DNA of 64,000 bases from Pseudomonadota bacterium (GTDB lineage Bacteria > Pseudomonadota > Gammaproteobacteria > Burkholderiales > SG8-39), in assembly GCA_021811085.1 (NCBI GenBank), contig JAJZPQ010000006.1:4914-68913 (forward strand), given 5' to 3'. A program made the position numbers and the translations under genes. Under the pieces are notes generated by a model, which was not told where the DNA came from, searched no databases, and saw only the letters and a list, made by a program, of their open reading frames with translations. The number at the start of each line of letters is the position of its first letter. Position 1 is the stretch's first letter. This document shows positions 2,025-32,287 of the stretch, in pieces.

Positions 2025-2759
2025 ATGAATGTGAAAACTGCCGGCCGTACGCTGGACCTGTTCGAAGCGTTCGCGCGCGAAGGCAAGCCGCTGTCGCTGT
2101 CGCAGCTGGCGCGCGCGATCGATGCGCCGGTGTCTTCCTGCTTCGGCATCGTGCGCACGCTGGAGGCGCGCGGCTATCTGTACGAGGTCAAGGCGCGCGC
2201 CGGCTTTTATCCGACCAAGCTCTTGTTCGAACACGCGCGCGCGATCGCGAGCCGCGATCCTCTGGCCGAGCGCTTCGTGCCCCTGCTGGAAAAGCTGCGC
2301 GACCAGACCGGCGAGACGGTGCTGCTATCCAAGCGCGTCGACCGGCAGGCGGTCTATCTGGCGGTGCTCGATGGCCTGCACAGCATCCGCTACAGTCCGA
2401 AAGTGGGCGAATTCAGGCCGCTGCACGCGAGCGCAAGCGGCAAGGCGCTTTTGGGCAGCCTTGCGCCGGCGCTGCGCAATGAACTGCTCGAGGGCATGAA
2501 GCTGCCGCGTGTGACTTCGCGCACGATTACTTCGCGCGCGGCTCTGGAAGCCGATCTGGAGCAGGGACGCGCGCGCGGCTGGTACGTGACGCACGGCGAG
2601 ACCGTCGCCGATCTGATGGCAGTGGCGGTGCCGGTGGCGGCCAGCGGCGAAATCTACAGCGTCGCACTGGCCGGTCCGATGCAGCGCATGGAAGGCGCGC
2701 TCAAGCGCCACGCGAAACTGCTCGCCGAGTTGCGTGCCATTTTGGAAGATCACGCATGA
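2025..2759 (+). CDS. IclR family transcriptional regulator
   Basis: N-terminal wHTH (RTLDLFEAFAREGKPLSLSQLARAIDAPVSSCFGIVRTLEARGYL) followed by an IclR-type effector domain. Length is 244 aa. Confidence 0.85.
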   Translation: MNVKTAGRTLDLFEAFAREGKPLSLSQLARAIDAPVSSCFGIVRTLEARGYLYEVKARAGFYPTKLLFEHARAIASRDPLAERFVPLLEKLRDQTGETVLLSKRVDRQAVYLAVLDGLHSIRYSPKVGEFRPLHASASGKALLGSLAPALRNELLEGMKLPRVTSRTITSRAALEADLEQGRARGWYVTHGETVADLMAVAVPVAASGEIYSVALAGPMQRMEGALKRHAKLLAELRAILEDHA

Positions 2760-3901
2760 GTTGGCTGCCGCTATCCGGCCTCAAGGTCGCGGATTTTTCC
2801 GCGTTGATACCCGGGCCGTTCACCACCGCGATCCTCGCCGATCTGGGCGCGGACGTAATCAAAGTCGAACCGCCGCGGGGCGACTCGGGCAGGAGCCTGT
2901 TGCCCGCGGTGTTTCATGCGATCAACCGCAACAAGCGCTCGATTGCGCTCGACCTCAAGCATGCGGCGGCGAAACCGGTGATCGAGCGGCTCGCGCGCTG
3001 GGCCGACATCGTGATCGAGTCGAACCGACCGGGCGTAAGCGCGCGCCTGGGTATCGATTACGCCAGCCTGTCGGCGTTGAACCCCGGGCTCATCTATTGC
3101 TCGCTGTCGGGCTTCGGCCAGAACGGTCCCTGGCGCGACAAGCCCGGGCACGACATCGGCTATGTCGGTGCGAGCGGCGGGCTGTCGTACCCGGGTTCGT
3201 GGCTGGGCAAGCCGGCACGCTCGAGCATCCCGATCGCGGACATGCAAGGCGGCAGTTTCGGCACCATCGCGATCCTCGCCGCGCTGCACGAACGCAGCCG
3301 CAGCGGGCGCGGCGCCGAACTCGACTTGAGCCTGTACGAAGCGGGCCTGTTCTGCGCCGCGCTGCGCCACGGCATCGGCGGGCATACCGACCCGCGCGCG
3401 CATATCTGGCCGGTGAACGATCTGTTCGAAACCGCGGACGGCAGCGTGCTGATCCTCGGCATCGTCGAGCAGCATTTCTGGGAAAACTTTCGCGCCGCAG
3501 TGAAAGAGATGGAGCCCGGCGTGATGGACCCGAAATTCGACACCGATCCCAGCCGGCGCAAGCACGGCGACGAGTTGTCGCGCTTGCTGAAGCAGTTGTT
3601 CCTGAAGAAAACCGCGCAGCAATGGCACGATCTGCTGGAACCGCTCGACGTTCCGGCCGAGTTGCCCATGACGCCGGCCGAAGCCTGCAGGACCGAGTAT
3701 GCGGCGGCACGCAAGGACGTGGCCGAAGTCGATGGCGAGCGCCATATTCTGTTTCCGCTGTGGGCCAACGGCGAGCGCGGCGGCGCGCTCAGGCGCGGCA
3801 CGCCCGCGCTCAATGCCGACGGCGCGGCGGTGCTGTGCGAACTCGGTTTCGCGCCGGCCGAGGCCGAGCGCATCCTCGGCTCGGCCGCTGCTGCGAACTG
3901 A
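2756..3901 (+). CDS. CoA-transferase family III (CaiB/BaiF-type)
   Basis: LSGLKVADFSALIPGPFTTAILADLGADVIKVEPPRGD is the typical family III N-terminus. There is a 4-nt overlap with the iclR stop. Confidence 0.85.
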   Translation: MSWLPLSGLKVADFSALIPGPFTTAILADLGADVIKVEPPRGDSGRSLLPAVFHAINRNKRSIALDLKHAAAKPVIERLARWADIVIESNRPGVSARLGIDYASLSALNPGLIYCSLSGFGQNGPWRDKPGHDIGYVGASGGLSYPGSWLGKPARSSIPIADMQGGSFGTIAILAALHERSRSGRGAELDLSLYEAGLFCAALRHGIGGHTDPRAHIWPVNDLFETADGSVLILGIVEQHFWENFRAAVKEMEPGVMDPKFDTDPSRRKHGDELSRLLKQLFLKKTAQQWHDLLEPLDVPAELPMTPAEACRTEYAAARKDVAEVDGERHILFPLWANGERGGALRRGTPALNADGAAVLCELGFAPAEAERILGSAAAAN

Positions 3902-3903
3902 AT

Positions 3904-5070
3904 ATGGAATTTGCACTGTCCGCGGAGCAGCAGGCGATACGCGAGGCGATCGCGAGAATCTGCGCGCAATTCGACGCCGATTACTGGCTGGCGAAAGACC
4001 GCGCCGGCGAATTCCCGCATGAACTGCATCAGGCACTGGCGCGCGACGGCTGGCTCGGCATCGCGATGCCGGAGGCCTACGGCGGGGCCGGCCTGGGGAT
4101 CACCGAAGCGGCGGTGATGCTGCAGACCATCGCCGAGTCGGGTGCAGGTTTCTCGGGCGCTTCGGCCGTGCACATGAACATCTTCGGCCTGAATCCGGTG
4201 GTGGTGTTCGGCACCGACGCGCAGAAGCGGCGCATGCTGCCGCCGCTGATCGCCGGACGCGAAAAAGCCTGTTTCGCCGTGACCGAGCCCAATACCGGCC
4301 TCAATACGACGCGGCTCAAGACGCGCGCCGTGCGCGCAGGCGGTCGCTATATCCTGTCCGGGCAGAAGGTGTGGATTTCCACGGCCCAGGTGGCCGAGAA
4401 AATGCTGGTCCTCGCACGCACCACGCCGATCGAGGAGTGCCGCAAACCTGCCGACGGCTTGACGCTGTTCTATACCGACCTCGACCGGCGCTATGTCGAA
4501 GTGCAGGAGATCGACAAGATGGGCCGCGCCGCGGTCGATACCAACCAGGTGTTCATCGACGGGCTGCCGGTGCCGGCCGAAGACCGCCTGGGTGAGGAGG
4601 GCAAGGGCTTCGACTGCATCCTGCACGGCATGAACCCGGAGCGCATTTTGATCGCGGCGGAGTCGGTCGGCCTGGGACGCGCGGCGCTGGCGCGCGCGAC
4701 GCAGTATGCGAAGGAGCGCGTCGTGTTCGATCGGCCGATCGGCCAGAACCAGGGCATCCAGCATCCGCTCGCGGAGTGCTGGATGGAACTGGAGGCGGCC
4801 AACCTCATGGTGTTCAAGGCGGCGAGCCTGTACGACGGCGGCCAGCCCTGCGGCGCCGAGGCGAACGCGGCCAAATACCTTGCCGGGGAAGCCTGCTTCA
4901 AAACCTGCCAGCAGGCGTTGATGACCCACGGCGGCTTCGGTTATGCCAAGGAATACCACGTCGAACGTTACCTGCGCGAGAGCCTGATCGGGCGCATCGC
5001 GCCGATCACCCCGCAGCTGATCCTGTGCTTCATCGCCGAGAAGGTTCTCGGTCTGCCTAAATCGTATTGA
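3904..5070 (+). CDS. acyl-CoA dehydrogenase
   Basis: MEFALSAEQQAIREAIARICAQF...GWLGIAMPEAYGGAGLG...VTEPNTGLNT, ending with an ACAD C-terminal helical domain. The true ATG at 3904 is in frame inside the 778-aa track ORF. Confidence 0.85.
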   Translation: MEFALSAEQQAIREAIARICAQFDADYWLAKDRAGEFPHELHQALARDGWLGIAMPEAYGGAGLGITEAAVMLQTIAESGAGFSGASAVHMNIFGLNPVVVFGTDAQKRRMLPPLIAGREKACFAVTEPNTGLNTTRLKTRAVRAGGRYILSGQKVWISTAQVAEKMLVLARTTPIEECRKPADGLTLFYTDLDRRYVEVQEIDKMGRAAVDTNQVFIDGLPVPAEDRLGEEGKGFDCILHGMNPERILIAAESVGLGRAALARATQYAKERVVFDRPIGQNQGIQHPLAECWMELEAANLMVFKAASLYDGGQPCGAEANAAKYLAGEACFKTCQQALMTHGGFGYAKEYHVERYLRESLIGRIAPITPQLILCFIAEKVLGLPKSY

Positions 5071-5150: not shown

Positions 5151-6410
5151 GTGGGGATTGATTTGCCAAGAATACCGACGCACACGCGCACCGCACTCAC
5201 TGTGCTAGGCATTTGCGTGGTGTTGAACATGATCGGGCGCGGCACCGCCGACACCTACGTCGTGTTCCTGCTGCCGCTGGAGCGCGATCTGAGCTGGACC
5301 CGTTCGCAGACGACCAGCGTGTATTCGATTTACCTGCTGGTCACCGGCCTGAGTTCACCCATCGTCGGCATGCTGTTCGACCGCTTCGGGCCGCGTGCGC
5401 TCTATACCTGCGGCATGACCTCGCTCGCCTGCGCCTATCTGCTCGCGCCGCAGGTGCACACGCTGTGGCAGTTCTATGCCACCGTCGGCGTGATGACGGG
5501 CATCGCCGCCGCCTCTCTGGGCATGGTGCCTTCGTCCAGCCTGATCAGCCGCTGGTTCCGCGAGCGCCTGGGCACGGCGATTTCGGCGGCTTTCGCCGGC
5601 CTCGGACTGGGGGCGCTGTTCATCGTGCCGGGCGTGCAGTACCTGCTGCAGACCCATGGCTGGCGCGAGAGCTACCAGATCATGGGCGGCGTACTGCTCG
5701 CCTTTGTGCCGCTGGTGTTCTTCCTGCCGTGGAGACGCTTCGCCGAAGGCCATCCGGAATACGACCAGCTGAAGCGCAGCAGCGTCGCGCCCGAGCACGA
5801 ATGGACCGTGCGCACGGCGATGAGAACGCGCATGTTCTGGGGCCTGGTCTGGGTATTCTTTTTCACTTCGGTCGGCATGTATACGATCATGGTGCAGACC
5901 GTGGCCTATCTGGTGGAGCAGGGTTTCTCCCCCATCGTCGCTGCCACCGCGTTCGGCACTTCGTCGATGCTGTCGGTGGTCGGCGTGCTCAGCACTGGGG
6001 CCATCGCCGATCGCATCGGCCCGCGCCGCATCGTCAGCCTGACTTTCGTTGGCAGCATCGTCGGCGTGACCCTGCTGCTGCTCATGACCTGGTTCCCGCT
6101 GCGCGGCCTGCTTATCGCCTACGTGCTTGCGTTCGGCATCTGCCAGGGTGCGCGCGGCCCGATCGTGTCCTCGATCAGCACGCGCCTGTTCGCCGGAAAA
6201 AACGTCGCCGCCATTTACGGCATCATTTTCGCGAGCAATGCGGTAGGGGCGGGCCTGGGCTCGCTGATGGCCGGGCTGCTGCACGATTTTTCCGGCAGCT
6301 ATCGGCCGAGTTTCGTGTTTTCGGTGTGCGCGCTGTTTATCGCCGGACTGCCGTTCTGGCGCGTACCGGAGTTGCGCGATTTCCGCATGCGCCACGGAAG
6401 CCGTCCTTAG
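5151..6410 (+). CDS. MFS transporter
   Basis: 419 aa with about 12 hydrophobic segments. An MFS loop motif (FDRFGPR) follows TM2. The start codon is uncertain. Confidence 0.75.
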   Translation: MGIDLPRIPTHTRTALTVLGICVVLNMIGRGTADTYVVFLLPLERDLSWTRSQTTSVYSIYLLVTGLSSPIVGMLFDRFGPRALYTCGMTSLACAYLLAPQVHTLWQFYATVGVMTGIAAASLGMVPSSSLISRWFRERLGTAISAAFAGLGLGALFIVPGVQYLLQTHGWRESYQIMGGVLLAFVPLVFFLPWRRFAEGHPEYDQLKRSSVAPEHEWTVRTAMRTRMFWGLVWVFFFTSVGMYTIMVQTVAYLVEQGFSPIVAATAFGTSSMLSVVGVLSTGAIADRIGPRRIVSLTFVGSIVGVTLLLLMTWFPLRGLLIAYVLAFGICQGARGPIVSSISTRLFAGKNVAAIYGIIFASNAVGAGLGSLMAGLLHDFSGSYRPSFVFSVCALFIAGLPFWRVPELRDFRMRHGSRP

Positions 6411-6483
6411 CGCCGGGGCGTAGGCGGGCGGTTTGCGCTAAGATTCGCAGCAGTTCGCAAAGATCAAGAAAGCGGGGACAGCG

Positions 6484-7962
6484 ATGCAGAAATTGAGAAT
6501 GTACATAGGGGGCAAATTCGCAGATTCGGCCTCGGGCAAGTGGTTCGACAGCTACAACCCCTACAGCGGCGAACCCTGGGCGCAGATCGCGCAGGGCAAC
6601 GCGCAGGACGTGGACCGCGCCGTGCGCGCGGCGCAGCAGGCGTTCACGACCGGGCCGTGGCCGCAGTTCAACGCGAGCCAGCGCGGCATGCTGCTGCACA
6701 AGCTGGGCGAGCTGGTGGCGCGCGATGCGAACAAGCTGGCCGAAATCGAAGTGCGCGATAACGGCAAGCTGATCGCGGAGATGCAGGGCCAGCTCAACTA
6801 TATTCCGCAGTGGTACTACTACTTCGGCGGTATGGCGGACAAGATCCAGGGTGCGGTGATTCCGCTGGACAAGAAGGGGTTTTTCAATTTCACGCGCTAC
6901 GAGCCGCTCGGCGTGGTGGCCGCGATCACGCCCTGGAATTCACCCTTGCTGCTGACCGCGTGGAAACTCGCGCCGGCGCTGGCCGCCGGCAATACCGTGG
7001 TGATCAAACCATCCGAATTCACGTCGGCGTCGACGCTGGAATTCGTGAAGCTGTTCGAGGAAGCCGGATTTCCGCCCGGGGTGGTCAATGTCGTCACCGG
7101 CTTCGGCAAGGACGTGGGCATGCCGCTGGTCGAACACCCGCTGGTCAAAAAAATCGCGTTCACCGGTTCGGATGCGACCGGCCGCGTGATCAACGAGGCT
7201 GCGGCGCGGATGTTCAAGCGCGTGAGCCTGGAACTGGGCGGCAAGTCGCCGAACATCGTGTTTGCCGACGCGAATATCGAGGACGCCGTCAACGGGGCGG
7301 TGTCCGGCATATTTGCGGCCACCGGCCAGACTTGCATTGCCGGTTCGCGCCTGCTGCTGCAGGAGAGCATCCACGACGTCTTCATGGAGAAGCTGCTGGC
7401 CTTGGCGCAGACCGCGCGCATGGGCGACCCGATGAGCCTGGACACACAGGTTGGCCCGGTGACCACGCGGCCGCAGTACGAAAAAGTGCTGGGCTATATC
7501 GACATCGCGAAACAGGAAGGCGCGCAACTGCTGCTCGGGGGCGGGGCTGCCACGCGCCCCGAATGCGGCAAGGGCTGGTTCGTCGAGCCGACCGTGTTCG
7601 CCGGCGTGAACAACAAGATGCGCATTGCGCAGGAAGAGGTGTTCGGTCCGGTGTTGTCGGTGATCAAGTTCAAGGATGAAGCCGAGGCGCTGGAAATCGC
7701 CAACGACGTGCGCTTCGGCCTGGGCTCGGGGGTTTGGACCAGCGACATCGGCCGCGCCATCCGCATGTCCGAGCGCATCCAGGCCGGCACGGTCTGGGTC
7801 AATACCTACCGCGCAGTGAGCTACCTCTCGCCGTTCGGCGGCTACAAGGATTCCGGTCTCGGGCGCGAGAACGGCATGGACGCGGTGCGCGAATACCTGC
7901 AGCTCAAGAGCGTCTGGATCAACACCGGCGCGGTTACCGGCAATCCGTTCGTCATGCGCTGA
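6484..7962 (+). CDS. NAD(P)-dependent aldehyde dehydrogenase
   Basis: 492 aa with the ALDH signatures ELGGKSP and FAATGQTCIAGSR (catalytic Cys), plus EEVFGPV. Confidence 0.9.
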   Translation: MQKLRMYIGGKFADSASGKWFDSYNPYSGEPWAQIAQGNAQDVDRAVRAAQQAFTTGPWPQFNASQRGMLLHKLGELVARDANKLAEIEVRDNGKLIAEMQGQLNYIPQWYYYFGGMADKIQGAVIPLDKKGFFNFTRYEPLGVVAAITPWNSPLLLTAWKLAPALAAGNTVVIKPSEFTSASTLEFVKLFEEAGFPPGVVNVVTGFGKDVGMPLVEHPLVKKIAFTGSDATGRVINEAAARMFKRVSLELGGKSPNIVFADANIEDAVNGAVSGIFAATGQTCIAGSRLLLQESIHDVFMEKLLALAQTARMGDPMSLDTQVGPVTTRPQYEKVLGYIDIAKQEGAQLLLGGGAATRPECGKGWFVEPTVFAGVNNKMRIAQEEVFGPVLSVIKFKDEAEALEIANDVRFGLGSGVWTSDIGRAIRMSERIQAGTVWVNTYRAVSYLSPFGGYKDSGLGRENGMDAVREYLQLKSVWINTGAVTGNPFVMR

Positions 7963-24720: not shown

Positions 24721-24795
24721 TGGTGGGCGATACTGGGATCGAACCAGTGACTTCCACCGTGTGAAGGTGGCACTCTACCGCTGAGTTAACCGCCC
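24721..24795 (-). tRNA. tRNA-Val (anticodon CAC)
   Basis: The reverse complement GGGCGGTTAACTCAGCGGTAGAGTGCCACCTTCACACGGTGGAAGTCACTGGTTCGATCCCAGTATCGCCCACCA folds as a cloverleaf. The anticodon loop is TTCACAC, and the CCA end is encoded. Confidence 0.9.
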
Positions 24796-26341: not shown

Positions 26342-26417
<76 letters not shown>

Positions 26418-26454: not shown

Positions 26455-26530
26455 GTCCCCATCGTCTAGAGGCCTAGGACATCACCCTTTCACGGTGAGT
26501 ACGGGGGTTCGAATCCCCCTGGGGACGCCA
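26455..26530 (+). tRNA. tRNA-Glu (anticodon UUC)
   Basis: GTCCCCATCGTCTAGAGGCCTAGGACATCACCCTTTCACGGTGAGTACGGGGGTTCGAATCCCCCTGGGGACGCCA has the anticodon loop CTTTCAC. Confidence 0.9.
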
Positions 26531-27830: not shown

Positions 27831-28139
27831 TTGCATCACAGGACCACACGGATCAACGAACGACAGGCCCCGCAGTTGACGGTGTGACCGCGACGACCTC
27901 TGCGAGTTCCATGCGCTACTACAAAATATTCACGCCGAGGTGTTTGCACTGCTAACACCTGATGCGATCGACTGGCGAGCGCGCAACGACTTCCCGCGCC
28001 GTCGGTATGTGCGCCCCTTTGCCAAACACAAGTGTCAAGCCGAATCGTGGCCTCGACGAAGCCATGAATCGGGGAGACAGCACGGCCGCGCCATGGAAAT
28101 ATGACTCCTCATTCCGCTACGAGCGATGAGGTGACAAAC

Positions 28140-28364
28140 ATGTCCGATCAATACCAGCAAGGGCTATCCATTCTTCGACGTAAGCAGGTCGAAGCCCGCA
28201 CGGGGCTTGCGCGCAGCACGATTTATCACCACATCAAGGCCGGCACATTTCCGCGACCGATCCCTCTCGGTCCCCGCGCGGTCGGGTGGCTCGAATCCGA
28301 CGTGAGCAACTGGATCGCCGAGCGGGTACGGATGGCGCGCGACGGTGCCAATCGCTCTGTTTGA
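28140..28364 (+). CDS. alpA: AlpA family phage/island regulatory protein (MerR-like HTH)
   Basis: MSDQYQQGLSILRRKQVEARTGLARSTIYHHIKAGTFPRPIPLGPRAVGWLESDVSNWI. A GAGG RBS lies 8 nt upstream. Confidence 0.8.
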   Translation: MSDQYQQGLSILRRKQVEARTGLARSTIYHHIKAGTFPRPIPLGPRAVGWLESDVSNWIAERVRMARDGANRSV

Positions 28365-28398: not shown

Positions 28399-28998
28399 TC
28401 ACGCCGCGATTGTTGCGCGTGCGCCGGCCATGCCGTAGCGATCGAGCAGTCCCGTGTAGCGTACGGTGAAGTTCTTTTCTTCGGTCAGATTCTTGAACGT
28501 GGCCGACAGGCTGTCGCTGCGGTGCTCCTGCGGGGCGCCACCGGCTTGCCACAGGGCGTTCTGCAGCCCCTTGGACAACGTCTCGAAGCTCTCGCCACCT
28601 TCAACCACTTCCACATGCTCCCAGCACGAGAAGGCCAGCACGAAGTGGTACAGAATGTGCGCAAACGGCGCGTTGGCAATCGTGATGTGCAACTCGCCCA
28701 TCGCGGTGAAGTCCAACAGGCCACGATGGCCCGGCGCATGCTCTTGCGGGAAGAGCACTTCCTTGGGTGGTCCTTCCAGCGCGCGCCATTGCCGGACGTG
28801 ACGCTGCAGGGTGCGCAGCACGCCGTCGGGGAAGCTCTCGGGGTGATCGTCCTGGAGCTTACGCAGCAGCGTGATGGCCATCAGCTTGGTCGCGCTCTTG
28901 AGCAGCGGCACGACCTCATTGTCCCAGACCTGGGCAAACGGATCGGTTCGCGAGCGCCAATAGCGTCGGGGGGTTCTGTGAAGGCAACTTTGAGGCAC
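28399..28998 (-). pseudogene. 3'-truncated DDE (rve-type) transposase gene, possibly an IS21-like IstA type
   Basis: RRYWRSRTDPFAQVWDNEVVPLL..DGVLRTLQRHVRQWRA..GLLDFT..ILYHFVLAFSCWEHV..PQEHRSDSLSATFKN covers the N-terminal HTH and the first two catalytic Asp regions only. It ends about 35 nt from alpA. The family assignment is from memory. Confidence 0.55.
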
Positions 28999-29245
28999 TT
29001 CTGCTCCCGGCTTTCATCGAGCAACGCTTGCGCTTCTGCCGTGCCCGGCTCAAGCACCACGACGTCAAGCTCGTTTTCACTCGCTATCGCGATGATGCGC
29101 AAGTTCGCCAAACCCGGGTGATACGCCAGGATTCGGTGGCGCAGGCATCCCGATTACCGAGCGGATGCCACAACAGCTTCGGATACCTCGATTCGCATCG
29201 CATGATGACCGTGAAGCGCCCGGCCACTAGGCGTTACGGCGTTCA

Positions 29246-29347
29246 TCATTTCCAGTTTGCCAATATTTGTGACGCGCATCTCGACGTCTTGCTCTCCGCC
29301 GCACAGCACGTAACCCCGCGCTCACCGCGATTACGCTTCATCGCGCG
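29246..29347 (-). pseudogene. IS30-family transposase gene, distal fragment (continuation after the IS200-like insertion)
   Basis: Reads RAMKRNRGERG.. and then decays to a stop. Joining it to 31925..32038 restores ..NRQKSISRAMKRNRGERG.., the IS30-type HTH (xSxISRExxRN). Confidence 0.55.
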
Positions 29348-29368
29348 GCTAAACCAACATAGGATATC

Positions 29369-29385
29369 CCCCGGCTCTGCCGGGG
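29369..29385 (+). repeat. IS200-like left-end hairpin
   Basis: CCCCGGC-TCT-GCCGGGG, a 7-bp stem. The identical 17-mer occurs at 31901-31917. Confidence 0.75.
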
Positions 29386-29402
29386 AGGCAGTAGAAGTTT
29401 GA

Positions 29403-31313
29403 GTGCGCCGGGAGACCGGCAAGGAGTAGATGGTGCAAGTCCATTGTGATGAAGGCGTAGCGAGCCACATCAGCCCTGAGCCGTGCGCAGGCACCCGCGA
29501 GGGTGTAGGCGAAGCGTCGGCAGGGGAACGTGCAGGCCAGCCATTGAGCCGCGAAAGATACTTGATTTCGGGCGCCGACGCTGTTCAAACGGCGGAAGGC
29601 AACATGAACGGGTGCGCTCACGCGAGCGCCCGGACAGCCCGGCGTGGTCGGAGACCCTGGCATGCACGGACGCTCTTTGCGCGGGAACCGGGAGGTCTCC
29701 GGACTGGCCAGTGCGGCAGATGTGCGCTGGTCCGCATTGGGAAGGCGAGGAGCCGAAGCCAATGATGCACGGTCTGGAGAAGTCAGACTCCTCCATAAGA
29801 GCGAAGAAGTCGGCGAACAAACCTGGGCGACCGGGGGCGGAGTCGATGGAGCAAAGGGAGGGGACCAAGGAGAACACGGGAGAGTCACCCGCGAGCCGGA
29901 CACTGAGCCGGGAAATCGTGACTGGAGGGCTGGACCGTGTACGGCAAGCAGCAAGAGGCAACAAGAAGGAGCGGTTCACAGCGCTGATGCACCATGTGAC
30001 GATAGATCTTCTGAGGCAGGCGTACTACTGGCTTAAACGCAGTGCGGCCCCAGGGGTAGATGGCGTCACCTGGCATGACTATGAGGACAACCTAGAAGCG
30101 AAGCTCACCGATCTGCATACGCGCGTCCACCGTGGCAGTTATCACCCAATGCCATCGAGGCGCAAATACATCGCCAAGCCGGACGGGCGCAAACGCCCGC
30201 TCGGAATTGCCGCGCTGGAGGACAAGATCATCCAGCGAGCGGTGGTGGAGGTGCTCAATGCGATCTACGAGCAGGACTTCCTGGGGTTCTCGTATGGATT
30301 CCGGCCCGGGCGCGGGCAGCACGACGCGCTCGATGCACTGGCGGTCGGAATTTCGCAGCGGCACGTGAACTGGATTCTGGACGCGGACATCGCCGCTTTC
30401 TTTGATACGGTTTCCCACGACTGGATGCTTCGGTTCCTGGAACACCGTATCGGCGATCGCCGCTTGCTTCGCTTGATTGGCAAATGGCTCAAGGCGGGAG
30501 TGATGGAAGAGGGCGTGGTTTCAGCAACCGAGACCGGAACCCCGCAAGGGGCGGTGGTTTCACCAGCGCTAGCCAACGTTTATCTGCATTACGTCTTCGA
30601 CTTGTGGGCGCATCGCTGGCGGCAGCAGCAAGCCCGCGGTGCGGTTATCTTCGTGCGATATGCCGACGATGTAGTGGCGGGATTTGAGCACGAAGGAGAG
30701 GCCAGGCGCTTTCTGGTGGAGTTGCGGCAGCGAATGGAGAAATTTGCGCTATCGATGCATCCCACCAAGACGCGATTGATCGAGTTCGGTCGCTACGCGG
30801 CTGAGCGCCGAGGTAAGCGCGGTCTGGGTAAGCCGGCGACGTTCAACTTTCTTGGCTTCACGCACATCGCTGGACGGACTCAAAAGGGCCGCTTCCAGTT
30901 GATACGCAAGACCCGGCGTGATCGCATGCGGGCGAAGCTCAAGGCCATCAAGGAAGAACTACGACGGCGCATGCACCACTCCATTCCGCAACAGGGGCAG
31001 TGGCTGCGGCAGGTCGTGCGCGGCTACTTTGCGTACCACGCCGTGCCAACCAATCTCCAAAGTCTGTCGGCCTTTCGGTACTTTGTGGGGCGGCTCTGGC
31101 TGAAGACGCTGCGGCGTCGCAGTCAGAAGAACCGCTTCTCGCGGGACCGGCTTACCCGACTCGCTGCGGACTGGCTCCCTTCTCCGCGAATCCTTCACCC
31201 ATGGCCCGATGCCCGCTTTGTCGTCAAACATCCAAGGTAAGAGCCCAGTGCCCGAATGGGGCCCGCTGGGATCCGTGCGGGGGGTGCGCAGAAATGGGCA
31301 TCCCTACCGCGAT
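29403..31313 (+). mobile_element. bacterial group II intron (ribozyme plus RT/maturase ORF)
   Basis: The 5' end is GTGCG at 29403. A domain V-like helix with a 2-nt bulge (GAGCCCAGTGCCCGAATGGGGCCCGCTGGGATC) lies at 31241-31273. A domain VI-like helix (GGGGTGC/GCATCCC) has a bulged A at 31306, 7 nt before a ..GAT 3' end. The 3' boundary is inferred. Confidence 0.75.
29762..31240 (+). CDS. group II intron reverse transcriptase/maturase
   Basis: RT motifs RKYIAKPDGRKRPLGIAALEDKIIQ, TPQGAVVSPALANVYL and VRYADDVV (YADD) are followed by a maturase (X) domain. I see no obvious HNH domain. The start codon is uncertain. Confidence 0.9.
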   Translation: MMHGLEKSDSSIRAKKSANKPGRPGAESMEQREGTKENTGESPASRTLSREIVTGGLDRVRQAARGNKKERFTALMHHVTIDLLRQAYYWLKRSAAPGVDGVTWHDYEDNLEAKLTDLHTRVHRGSYHPMPSRRKYIAKPDGRKRPLGIAALEDKIIQRAVVEVLNAIYEQDFLGFSYGFRPGRGQHDALDALAVGISQRHVNWILDADIAAFFDTVSHDWMLRFLEHRIGDRRLLRLIGKWLKAGVMEEGVVSATETGTPQGAVVSPALANVYLHYVFDLWAHRWRQQQARGAVIFVRYADDVVAGFEHEGEARRFLVELRQRMEKFALSMHPTKTRLIEFGRYAAERRGKRGLGKPATFNFLGFTHIAGRTQKGRFQLIRKTRRDRMRAKLKAIKEELRRRMHHSIPQQGQWLRQVVRGYFAYHAVPTNLQSLSAFRYFVGRLWLKTLRRRSQKNRFSRDRLTRLAADWLPSPRILHPWPDARFVVKHPR

Positions 31314-31334
31314 CATTTAAGGGAGTCCACCGCA

Positions 31335-31380
31335 GAAACTTCCAACCGTGAGCCGCCAAAGCACACGAAAAGGGAGTTTC
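31335..31380 (+). promoter_or_regulatory. stem-loop sequestering the tnpA Shine-Dalgarno sequence
   Basis: GAAACTTCC (31335-31343) pairs with GGGAGTTTC (31372-31380) over 9 bp including one G-U. The 3' arm contains the SD just upstream of the ATG at 31384. Salmonella IS200 is known to occlude its RBS in the same way. Confidence 0.55.
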
Positions 31381-31383
31381 GCG

Positions 31384-31815
31384 ATGGACGAGTACGAAAG
31401 TTTAAGTCATACGAAGTACGAATGCATCTATCACGTGGTGTTCATACCGAAGGGTCGGCGCCGAGCGTTGTACGGGGAGTTGAGGAAACACCTGGGCGAG
31501 ATATTTCGGCGGTTGGCAGAGCAAAAGGAGAGTCGCATCGAGGAGGGGCACCTGATGTCGGATCACGTGCACATGATGATCCGGATTCCGCCGAAGTACG
31601 CAGTGTCGCAAGTCATTGGTTTCATCAAGGGAAAGAGCGCGATTCACCTGGCGCGGGTATACGGAGAGCGGAAGCGAAATTTCGTTGGGCAGAGTTTCTG
31701 GGCACGAGGGTATTTTGTGTCGACCGTGGGCAGGGATAAAGAGATGATTCGCGACTACATCCGGCATCAGGAAGAAGAGGACAAGCGGTTGGACCAGTTG
31801 AAGCTTTGGCAATAG
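31384..31815 (+). CDS. tnpA: IS200/IS605 family Y1 (HUH) transposase TnpA
   Basis: MDEYESLSHTKYECIYHVVFIPKGRR..SDHVHMMIRIPPKY carries the HUH motif, and WARGYFVSTVG carries the catalytic Tyr. Confidence 0.9.
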   Translation: MDEYESLSHTKYECIYHVVFIPKGRRRALYGELRKHLGEIFRRLAEQKESRIEEGHLMSDHVHMMIRIPPKYAVSQVIGFIKGKSAIHLARVYGERKRNFVGQSFWARGYFVSTVGRDKEMIRDYIRHQEEEDKRLDQLKLWQ

Positions 31816-31899
31816 GAGGGCCACCTTCAGGTGGCGACGAGAACTGGGGTCGCGTTAGCGCCCCCCATCAAGCCGCTTTGAGCGGCTCACAATTTAAGG

Positions 31900-31918
31900 C
31901 CCCCGGCTCTGCCGGGGG
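31900..31918 (+). repeat. IS200-like right-end hairpin
   Basis: CCCCCGGC-TCT-GCCGGGGG, an 8-bp stem. It is preceded by a second hairpin, AGCCGCT-TTG-AGCGGCT, at 31871-31887. Confidence 0.7.
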
Positions 31919-31924
31919 ATATTT

Positions 31925-32038
31925 ACTGATCGATTTTTGTCGGTTCATCACTCGGGCAATGTCGCTCTGATTATGTCCGGCTTTGTTGAGGATGGCAATT
32001 TGGTATCGTTCGTCTTGGGTGAGATGTGTGTAGTTCAT
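31925..32038 (-). pseudogene. IS30-family transposase gene, 5' fragment interrupted by the IS200-like element
   Basis: Hand translation from the ATG at 32038 gives MNYTHLTQDERYQIAILNKAGHNQSDIARVMNRQKSIS, the typical IS30-family N-terminal HTH. Confidence 0.7.
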
Positions 32039-32287
32039 TCCAGACAACTTTGACTTGGCGGTCGAGAGGCTCGGATGCTATCGTATCTCGCCGTCCCAAC
32101 CCGTTAATCAGAGTCGCACTTCAGTGTACGACCGAACAGGAACAGTACGTGCTTTCCTGTCGCACTGTCGCCACGGCGCCCGTCGCATGAAATCTCATTA
32201 TTGAGCTTGCCTCGCCGGAGGGGTCGCGGGCGACAAGATTTGTCGATGTGCTAATCGCCTGCGGCTAATCAGCTCTCGTGATGGCTT

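Follow-up and report, generated by a model that had tools for sequence, protein, structure and literature searches.

The locus studied here lies on contig JAJZPQ010000006.1 of a Pseudomonadota bacterium (Burkholderiales), was analysed as a stretch of 64,000 nucleotides (the 64-kb window) and holds a group II intron within an insertion sequence (IS) of the IS200 family. The intron starts 17 nt downstream of the left-end hairpin of the IS, CCCCGGC-TCT-GCCGGGG, a spacing that an initial annotation of this DNA had correctly recorded, and it interrupts the leader ahead of the transposase gene tnpA. This arrangement raises the question of whether the hairpin drew the intron to its site, as that annotation proposed, or whether the adjoining sequence did. 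We consider it highly probable that an endonuclease-less class E intron retrohomed by ordinary base pairing into conserved IS200 left-end/leader sequence.

Boundaries and class of the intron

The boundaries of the intron (29403 to 31313, + strand, 1911 nt) were fixed by comparison with intronless IS200 copies, drawn from 80 reference-genome loci that encode close TnpA relatives. The joined window exons, ...GGCAGTAGAAGTTTGA|CATTTAAGGGAGTCC..., align gap-free across the junction to the copies at L006-L008 (92-95% identity), and about 80 further intronless copies are likewise contiguous there. The intron is therefore exactly 29403-31313, which confirms the ends first assigned to it (GTGCG at 29403, and 31313). 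Alignments to plasmid-borne relatives start at intron base 1 in all cases, and the length of 1911 nt is identical in five copies measured end to end (the window copy and L088-L091) as well as in L174 and L178.

An Rfam search of 29200-32100 up to E = 1 returned only RF02005 (group-II-D1D4-6; 183.2 bits, E 1e-53, model positions 1-225 in full), which delimits the domain I core at 29436..29657 and is the sole Rfam group II intron match in the window. No separate domain V/VI family match was obtained in that search, and these domains were therefore defined by folding and published consensus. The open reading frame (ORF; 29762..31240, +) for the 492-aa reverse transcriptase (RT)/maturase carries a YADD motif and matches TIGR04416 over residues 84-453 of 492 (356 bits; cutoff 300); a Pfam scan of the protein gave RVT_1 only, with no HNH or DNA-binding/endonuclease domain found. 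Domain V (31241..31273, +) begins directly after the TAA stop at 31238-31240, as had been annotated, and folds with an AGC triad, a 5-nt terminal loop (GAAUG) and a 2-nt bulge. Domain VI and the 3' end, ...CCCU-A-CCGCGAU, occupy 31275..31313 (+), with the bulged branch A at 31306. The ribozyme amounts to a compact 432 nt. Together with the NF033573 match of tnpA described below, the RF02005 and TIGR04416 matches bear out the annotated group II intron in an IS200 leader.

By its RNA motifs the intron is placed in class E (IIE) and not in class C. The class E consensus of the Zimmerly laboratory, built from 43 introns (PMC4028801 Additional file 1), has the 5' end GUGCGCCrrG...GGUGnAA, the domain V sequence GAGCCGnrUGCGG-nAAnn-CyGCAnGynCGGnUC and the domain VI/3' sequence UGUGnGGGGG...CU-A-CCnCGAy (PMC4028801). 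In the window we find GUGCGCCGGG at 29403 and GGUGCAA at 29431-29437; a domain V of GAGCCCAGUGCCC-GAAUG-GGGCCCGCUGGGAUC, which departs from the consensus through compensatory stem flips; and CGUGCGGGGGG...CCCU-A-CCGCGAU, ending at 31313. The protein is also of the class E kind, with RT and maturase domains and no DNA-binding/endonuclease domain found, and a 5-nt domain V loop and unusually small size are traits of IIE/IIF introns (PMC3753933). The class C consensus, by comparison, starts GUnyGCCnrGCAUGG and has the domain V sequence CCGCCGUrUrCG-GAnC-CGyAyGynnGGUGG with a 4-nt loop and a CGC triad (PMC4028801). It fails at the 5' end (GUGCGCCGGGAGACC), at the GAGCC... domain V and at the 5-nt loop, so the initial placement in class C is not upheld. 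Nor does the pairing scheme agree with class C, in which EBS1 (exon-binding site 1) is shortened and EBS2 is missing (for IIC introns without EBS2, PMC3753933): a 6-nt EBS1 covaries with the exon here, and relatives pair EBS2 with IBS2 (intron-binding site 2). For the DId3 alpha' motif, the Rfam structure has a terminal-loop hairpin at 29605-29636, for which inspection of the alignment established no covarying alpha partner. The class E intron S.me.I4 (pRmeGR4b) was sought among the plasmid matches, where only fragments in other Sinorhizobium plasmids were found, and no link was made.

Base pairing with a recurrently invaded target

The exon-binding sites in domain I were assigned from complementarity and covariation. 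EBS1, UCAAAC, lies in a hairpin loop at 29585..29590 (+) and is complementary to IBS1, GUUUGA, at exon positions -6 to -1 (29397..29402, +). EBS3 is G29650 (+), facing the first 3'-exon base C31314 (IBS3, +), which is C in all IS200-resident copies. The EBS2 core UACU (29559..29562, +) is situated in the internal loop 29554-29566 and can form a weak 4-bp pairing with IBS2, AGUA, at exon positions -13 to -10 (29390..29393, +).

In each of six introns that all differ in their 5' exons, the final 5-6 exon bases find their complement in the loop at 29585-29590. We extended this comparison to 29 non-redundant introns taken from plasmid matches, close relatives and 80 metagenome relatives. Across this set, exon positions -1 to -5 are Watson-Crick partners of 29585-29589 at frequencies of 0.97-1.00 despite 1.5-2 bits of variation, with 0.66 at position -6, and EBS3 pairs with the first 3'-exon base in 29/29 introns (1.55 bits of variation). 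In most relatives the loop 29554-29566 pairs over 6-7 bp with exon positions -8 to -14, and the EBS2-IBS2 score of the relatives averages 5.36 against a null of 4.12; the 4-bp pairing in the window was kept as 'weak' because its register agrees with theirs. Exon recognition is thus IIB-like, via EBS1, EBS2 and EBS3. The target is read by UCAAAC:GUUUGA at -6 to -1, G:C at +1 and, weakly, UACU:AGUA at -13 to -10. Since the intron has no endonuclease, it probably entered by reverse splicing where replication forks leave DNA single-stranded for a time.

The same intron occupies the same site (...AGTTTGA|GTGCG...CGCGAT|C...) in L088, L089, L090, L091 and L174, and also in L178, which is known from the last 7 bases of the 5' exon and the IS200 leader only. 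The general idea in the initial annotation of the IS as a home for the intron is right. The close copies were found by exact-protein look-ups of proteins 86-95% identical to the window RT, traced to their contigs; a metagenome scan with the RT gave relatives at no more than 73% identity. The intron-bearing IS200 copies differ in their leaders, and in the four that reach beyond the left end (L088, L090, L091 and L174) the outside flanks differ as well. Their introns are 86-95% identical to one another, compared with 75-78% for the host IS200 parts, and third codon positions diverge by 21-25% in the RT gene versus 38-46% in tnpA (L090 tnpA, apparently frameshifted as extracted, was left out of this comparison). 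Moreover, the nearest relative of each host IS200 is an intronless copy (window copy and L006, 91.9%; L090 and L015, 92.3%). Because the introns are less diverged than their hosts and the hosts are nearest to intronless copies, the introns must have spread among IS200 copies that had already diverged. The host copies are polyphyletic and have about double the divergence of the introns, which indicates that homing into the conserved site was directed by sequence and happened repeatedly.

Of the 80 reference-genome IS200 relatives none is occupied, although almost every one retains GTTTGA|C; among some 74 unoccupied IS200 copies, almost all have an intact target. The RT ORF is intact in the five copies compared (the window copy and L088-L091), and the differences between them fall mostly at third codon positions, the mark of purifying selection, from which we infer that the lineage is active. 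Taken together, these comparisons define one intron sub-lineage (RT at least about 86% identical, EBS1 UCAAAC) that is specialised on the IS200 site and has invaded it several times.

Two variants have changed EBS1 along with the target. At L177 the RT is 86% identical and EBS1 reads UCAGG, matching the non-IS200 target ...CCTGA|, by which L177 is identified as a retargeted variant of the IS200-homing lineage; at L173 (RT 78% identical) EBS1 reads CACCC and matches the non-IS200 target ...GGGTG|. The L177 intron (258-2168) follows ...AGGCCTGA| within an array of GGCCTGACCCCAGC-like repeats. At L178 (1918-2839) a degenerate tnpA, in which no Y1_Tnp gene was called, comes after the intron-bearing leader of the IS200; the host IS seems to have decayed here, with the intron RT still intact. 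Two further arrangements were seen within the family. L004, on a plasmid of Rhizobium sp. CCGE532, has two inverted copies of one intron (2504-4414 and 5806-6922) about 1.5 kb apart, with identical accessions for the intron-encoded protein, and at L068 an intronless IS200 has an intron fragment (1448-2097, -) some 1.4 kb upstream of it, on the opposite strand.

Expression of tnpA and competing explanations

The occupied site lies within the tnpA leader, for which RNAalifold on 24 diverse intronless leaders gave a consensus structure at 31325..31389 (+), starting 12 nt past the 3' splice site. In it, GUCCA (31325-31329) pairs with UGGAC (31385-31389) over the AUG, CUUC (31339-31342) pairs with the Shine-Dalgarno (SD) sequence GGAG (31373-31376), and a CGC/GCG helix shows double changes. 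Overall, 93% of cells are paired and six pairs have compensatory double changes; 0/500 shuffles reach the observed values, and slid controls are 25-38% paired. The SD-sequestering stem-loop of the IS200 group is therefore present, with the architecture described for Salmonella IS200 (PMC4513863), and the annotated SD-occluding structure proves to be real by its covariation. A second SD-like motif, AGGGAG (31320-31325), precedes the anti-SD and covaries with the anti-SD segment in IS200 relatives, which suggests that it could compete with the true SD for the anti-SD as an alternative-pairing switch in the IS200 leader.

Since the covariation-supported structure begins at 31325, the tnpA transcript must start upstream of that position. 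A scan of the + strand for sigma-70-like promoters found none in the 3' part of the intron, in the leader or in intronless copies. The tnpA transcript of Salmonella IS200 starts about 6 nt past the terminator hairpin, and its promoter elements are undefined (PMC4513863). By analogy, tnpA transcripts would here start near 29391, with a 5' exon of about 12 nt that includes IBS1, so that splicing would be needed to rebuild the leader. The intron would then separate the promoter/start region of tnpA from its SD-occluding leader, and transposase would be made only from spliced transcripts or be silenced; both outcomes are plausible. The splicing dependence put forward in the initial annotation is therefore plausible: no promoter is predicted in the leader, and the 12 nt between intron and structure are too short for one, while the dependence as such is extrapolated from the Salmonella system. 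For the intron, the IS may offer a harmless, transcribed and horizontally mobile home.

An alternative holds that the intron simply inactivates this IS200 copy by splitting its promoter/start region (TTGA|CA), which would leave tnpA untranscribed and make splicing irrelevant to it. A perfect TTGACA does span the insertion site and is conserved in the IS200 family, and bacterial introns have been described as limiting the spread of occupied IS elements (PMC5894124). As a -35 box for tnpA, TTGACA was nevertheless rejected: no acceptable -10 follows it and no promoter is predicted in intronless copies, and the implied start, about 30 nt downstream, falls inside the covarying leader structure and would exclude 31325-31338, part of the covarying pairs. 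The Salmonella start, moreover, lies just past the hairpin and upstream of the equivalent site (PMC4513863), and the purifying selection seen in every copy of the RT implies expression of the intron from its IS200 location. We regard simple inactivation as unlikely.

We are similarly doubtful of a bolder proposal, in which this class E lineage is a dedicated parasite or partner of IS200, its target strand being exposed as single-stranded DNA and tnpA being conditional on ribozyme activity. The top strand of IS200/IS605 elements would be single-stranded both in the excised circle and when it serves as lagging-strand template, and the intron would for this reason target the one conserved stretch beside the TnpA hairpin. 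If this were true, the IS would supply an ideal reverse-splicing substrate for an endonuclease-less intron, and the pair would constitute a reciprocal two-layer mobile element, the reverse of the IStron arrangement. GC skew is above zero in each 4-kb bin of the window (+0.002 to +0.066), so the + strand is probably leading-strand sequence throughout, which would make the lagging-strand template carry both the top strand of IS200 and the sense strand of the intron. This window-wide skew is consistent with the proposal and is a single case.

Quite unlikely, in our judgement, is a single ancient invasion of IS200 followed by transposition of the IS200::intron composite as a unit, with the intronless copies arising by intron loss. 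The window element does have intact ends and an intact tnpA, composites are found in different genomic contexts, and the intron is internal to the left-end hairpin, so that end recognition should be unaffected. Against this stand the polyphyly of the host IS200 copies, each nearest an intronless one, and the twofold greater divergence of hosts than introns at third codon positions. Among about seven copies, no two composites with near-identical IS parts and different flanks were found, and precise intron loss is rare. Occasional composite transposition alongside repeated homing is possible.

The hairpin itself was assessed as a homing signal by folding the 45 nt upstream of each insertion site, with controls taken 100-280 nt further upstream. 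Among relatives, a hairpin preference was absent over 33 independent insertion-site groups and 111 control windows: the mean minimum free energy is -10.79 kcal/mol in both sets (Mann-Whitney p = 0.73), and long-stem fractions are similar. Close relatives sit in genes without hairpins, at a porin stop codon (L001) and within an IS5 transposase gene (L005) among other places, and a few relatives (L130, L140 and L122) are located 10-17 nt past hairpins. No T-run follows the left-end hairpin, nor is there a terminator flag on the + strand. Targeting of terminators and attC sites is confined to class C, and other lineages home to sequence sites (PMC4424553). Homing to the hairpin is therefore unsupported; the hairpin is 17 nt upstream of the intron only because the conserved IS200 segment GGCAGUAGAAGUUUGA|C directly follows the TnpA-binding hairpin.

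Insertion of a class C (IIC) intron downstream of the left-end hairpin, taken by it for a terminator-like stem-loop, is consequently most improbable. The intron does lie 17 nt past a hairpin with a perfect 7-bp GC stem, its ribozyme is very compact, its RT lacks an endonuclease domain as in class C, its top PDB match is the GsI-IIC RT, and a few relatives are at a like distance past hairpins. However, its AGC triad and 5-nt domain V loop (class C has CCGCC... and GAnC), its class E-like 5' and 3' boundary motifs, its 6-bp EBS1, the EBS2 loop pairing of its relatives (IIC introns have no EBS2; PMC3753933), the hairpin-free gene sites and lack of enrichment among relatives and the missing T-run all contradict such an insertion. 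The initial annotation had named assignment to a lineage that does not target hairpins as decisive against its own proposal, and the ribozyme falls in class E; with the EBS/IBS covariation, the want of hairpin preference and the missing T-run, the terminator-like homing site is not supported. An intron is not of class C just because a hairpin is close by.

The L130 intron (153-2080), a distant relative, has a 3' exon that starts GTGCGCCGGTGAAGCCGG, and a second intron copy appears to abut the first in tandem; it also follows a 9-bp hairpin resembling a repetitive extragenic palindrome (REP).

Retrohoming of a class E intron by base pairing has its own weaknesses, and several observations count against it. 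The EBS2-IBS2 pairing in the IS200-resident copies is just 4 bp (UACU:AGUA) and at chance level, so distal features of the 5' exon, including the hairpin, may contribute to recognition by the protein. In searches against PDB sequences the nominal best match of the RT is a class C enzyme (GsI-IIC, 159 bits, 1.4e-45), ahead of LtrA (128 bits, 3e-36) and TeI4h (125 bits); these scores are ambiguous and were not used for class assignment. All RTs in the PDB are of class C, ML or CL. The assignment to class E draws on RNA motifs and not on an RT tree, and the ribozyme, at 432 nt, is slightly under the 450-700 nt quoted for IIE/IIF introns. Only about seven IS200 copies with the intron were available, a small sample drawn from short metagenome contigs. 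Finally, the tnpA start site in this IS200 family is deduced by analogy, and splicing and mobility are predicted from the sequence.

Genomic setting and known systems

The window has a nested structure, in which an IS30 remnant is interrupted by the IS200 and the IS200 in turn by the group II intron. The IS200 element spans 29351..31927 (+; 2577 bp, or 666 bp without the intron), with ends that agree with intronless relatives; the flank to its left ends ...GGCT and the element itself ends ...TACT. In-silico deletion of 29351-31927 rejoins an IS30-type ORF (...NRQKSIS|RAMKRNRGERG) and extends its Pfam HTH_38 match from positions 2-35 to 2-44 of 44, which supports these limits. Because removal restores the interrupted ORF seamlessly, the IS200 inserted without target duplication. 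The insertion point is the helix-turn-helix region of the IS30-family transposase gene, whose N-terminal part was identified by HTH_38 and ORF reconstruction on the - strand at 31928..32047, resuming at 29350 and below (to about 29190). The reconstructed ORF decays soon after, and the IS30 copy is therefore a remnant.

The left-end subterminal hairpin (29369..29385, +) lies 18 nt from that end; it is conserved across about 80 related IS200 copies and is presumed to be the TnpA recognition hairpin. Its right-end counterpart (31900..31918, +; 8-bp stem) stands 9 nt from the right end and is followed by a T-rich tail. The 17-mer CCCCGGCTCTGCCGGGG occurs twice in the 64-kb window, only at the IS ends (29369-29385 and 31901-31917), against 0.01 expected by chance. 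The same hairpin, loop included, is thus found on the same strand at both ends, without terminal inverted repeats, as in the IS200 group. The gene tnpA (31384..31815, +) encodes a 143-aa Y1 (HUH) transposase that matches NF033573 (143 bits; cutoff 55) and Y1_Tnp (2-121 of 121, 6e-37); the model for REP-associated tyrosine transposases scores it at 40, under the cutoff of 80.

Upstream of the nested elements are tRNA genes at 24724-24795 (-), 26342-26414 (+) and 26455-26527 (+), followed by an AlpA-like gene (28101-28364) and an ORF with a Y4rL_C domain (28399-28998, -). The setting of the nested elements looks like a mobile-element island or graveyard linked to tRNA genes.

That group II introns live in other bacterial mobile elements is well established in principle. 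The combination seen here, of a class E sub-lineage with the left-end leader of a betaproteobacterial and acidobacterial family of IS200 on which it is specialised, appears to be new, and we found no description of a class E intron paired with an IS200 left end in the searchable literature. The present comparison documents a natural class E homing site in the IS200 leader of a widespread family, with several independent invasions and many intact empty targets. It provides a ready system for studying the use of single-stranded DNA by endonuclease-less introns and the gating or throttling of a transposase by an intron.

Among characterised introns, those of class E (e.g. Cl.be.I2; Nagy et al. 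2013, PMC3753933; Toro et al. 2002) share the boundary motifs, a domain V loop of 5 nt, the compactness of the ribozyme, the absence of an endonuclease domain from the RT/maturase and the dominance of EBS1-IBS1 in exon recognition; the window intron differs in its slightly smaller ribozyme (432 nt) and in belonging to a sub-lineage specialised on the IS200 left end. Class C introns such as B.h.I1, which follow terminators or attC stem-loops (PMC1702495; Robart et al. 2007), are likewise compact, endonuclease-less and near a hairpin, but differ in domain V sequence and loop, boundary motifs, EBS1 length, the lack of EBS2 and the hairpin habit, and the window intron is not one of them. The closest parallel in lifestyle may be drawn with RmInt1/RmInt2, class D introns of ISRm2011-2 and related IS elements in Sinorhizobium meliloti (PMC5894124, PMC4615759). 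These are also endonuclease-less, home in conserved IS sequence by EBS1/EBS2/EBS3 recognition, have made many independent invasions and are thought to limit the IS. Here, in contrast, the intron is of class E, its host is a single-strand HUH-type IS200 and not a DDE-type IS, and its site is in the untranslated leader and not in the transposase coding region.

Group II introns at a conserved IS site have a direct precedent in the F4 introns of Thermosynechococcus elongatus in the IS200-family ISEL1 (Mohr et al. 2010, PMC2882425), although these are chloroplast-like (IIB), ORF-less and cyanobacterial. IStrons (PMC4227781) also combine a self-splicing intron with an IS200/IS605-family transposon. 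In them it is a group I intron that encloses the IS, and the element splices as a whole from host genes, whereas the window element has a group II intron inside the IS, and its splicing would restore only the IS's own leader.

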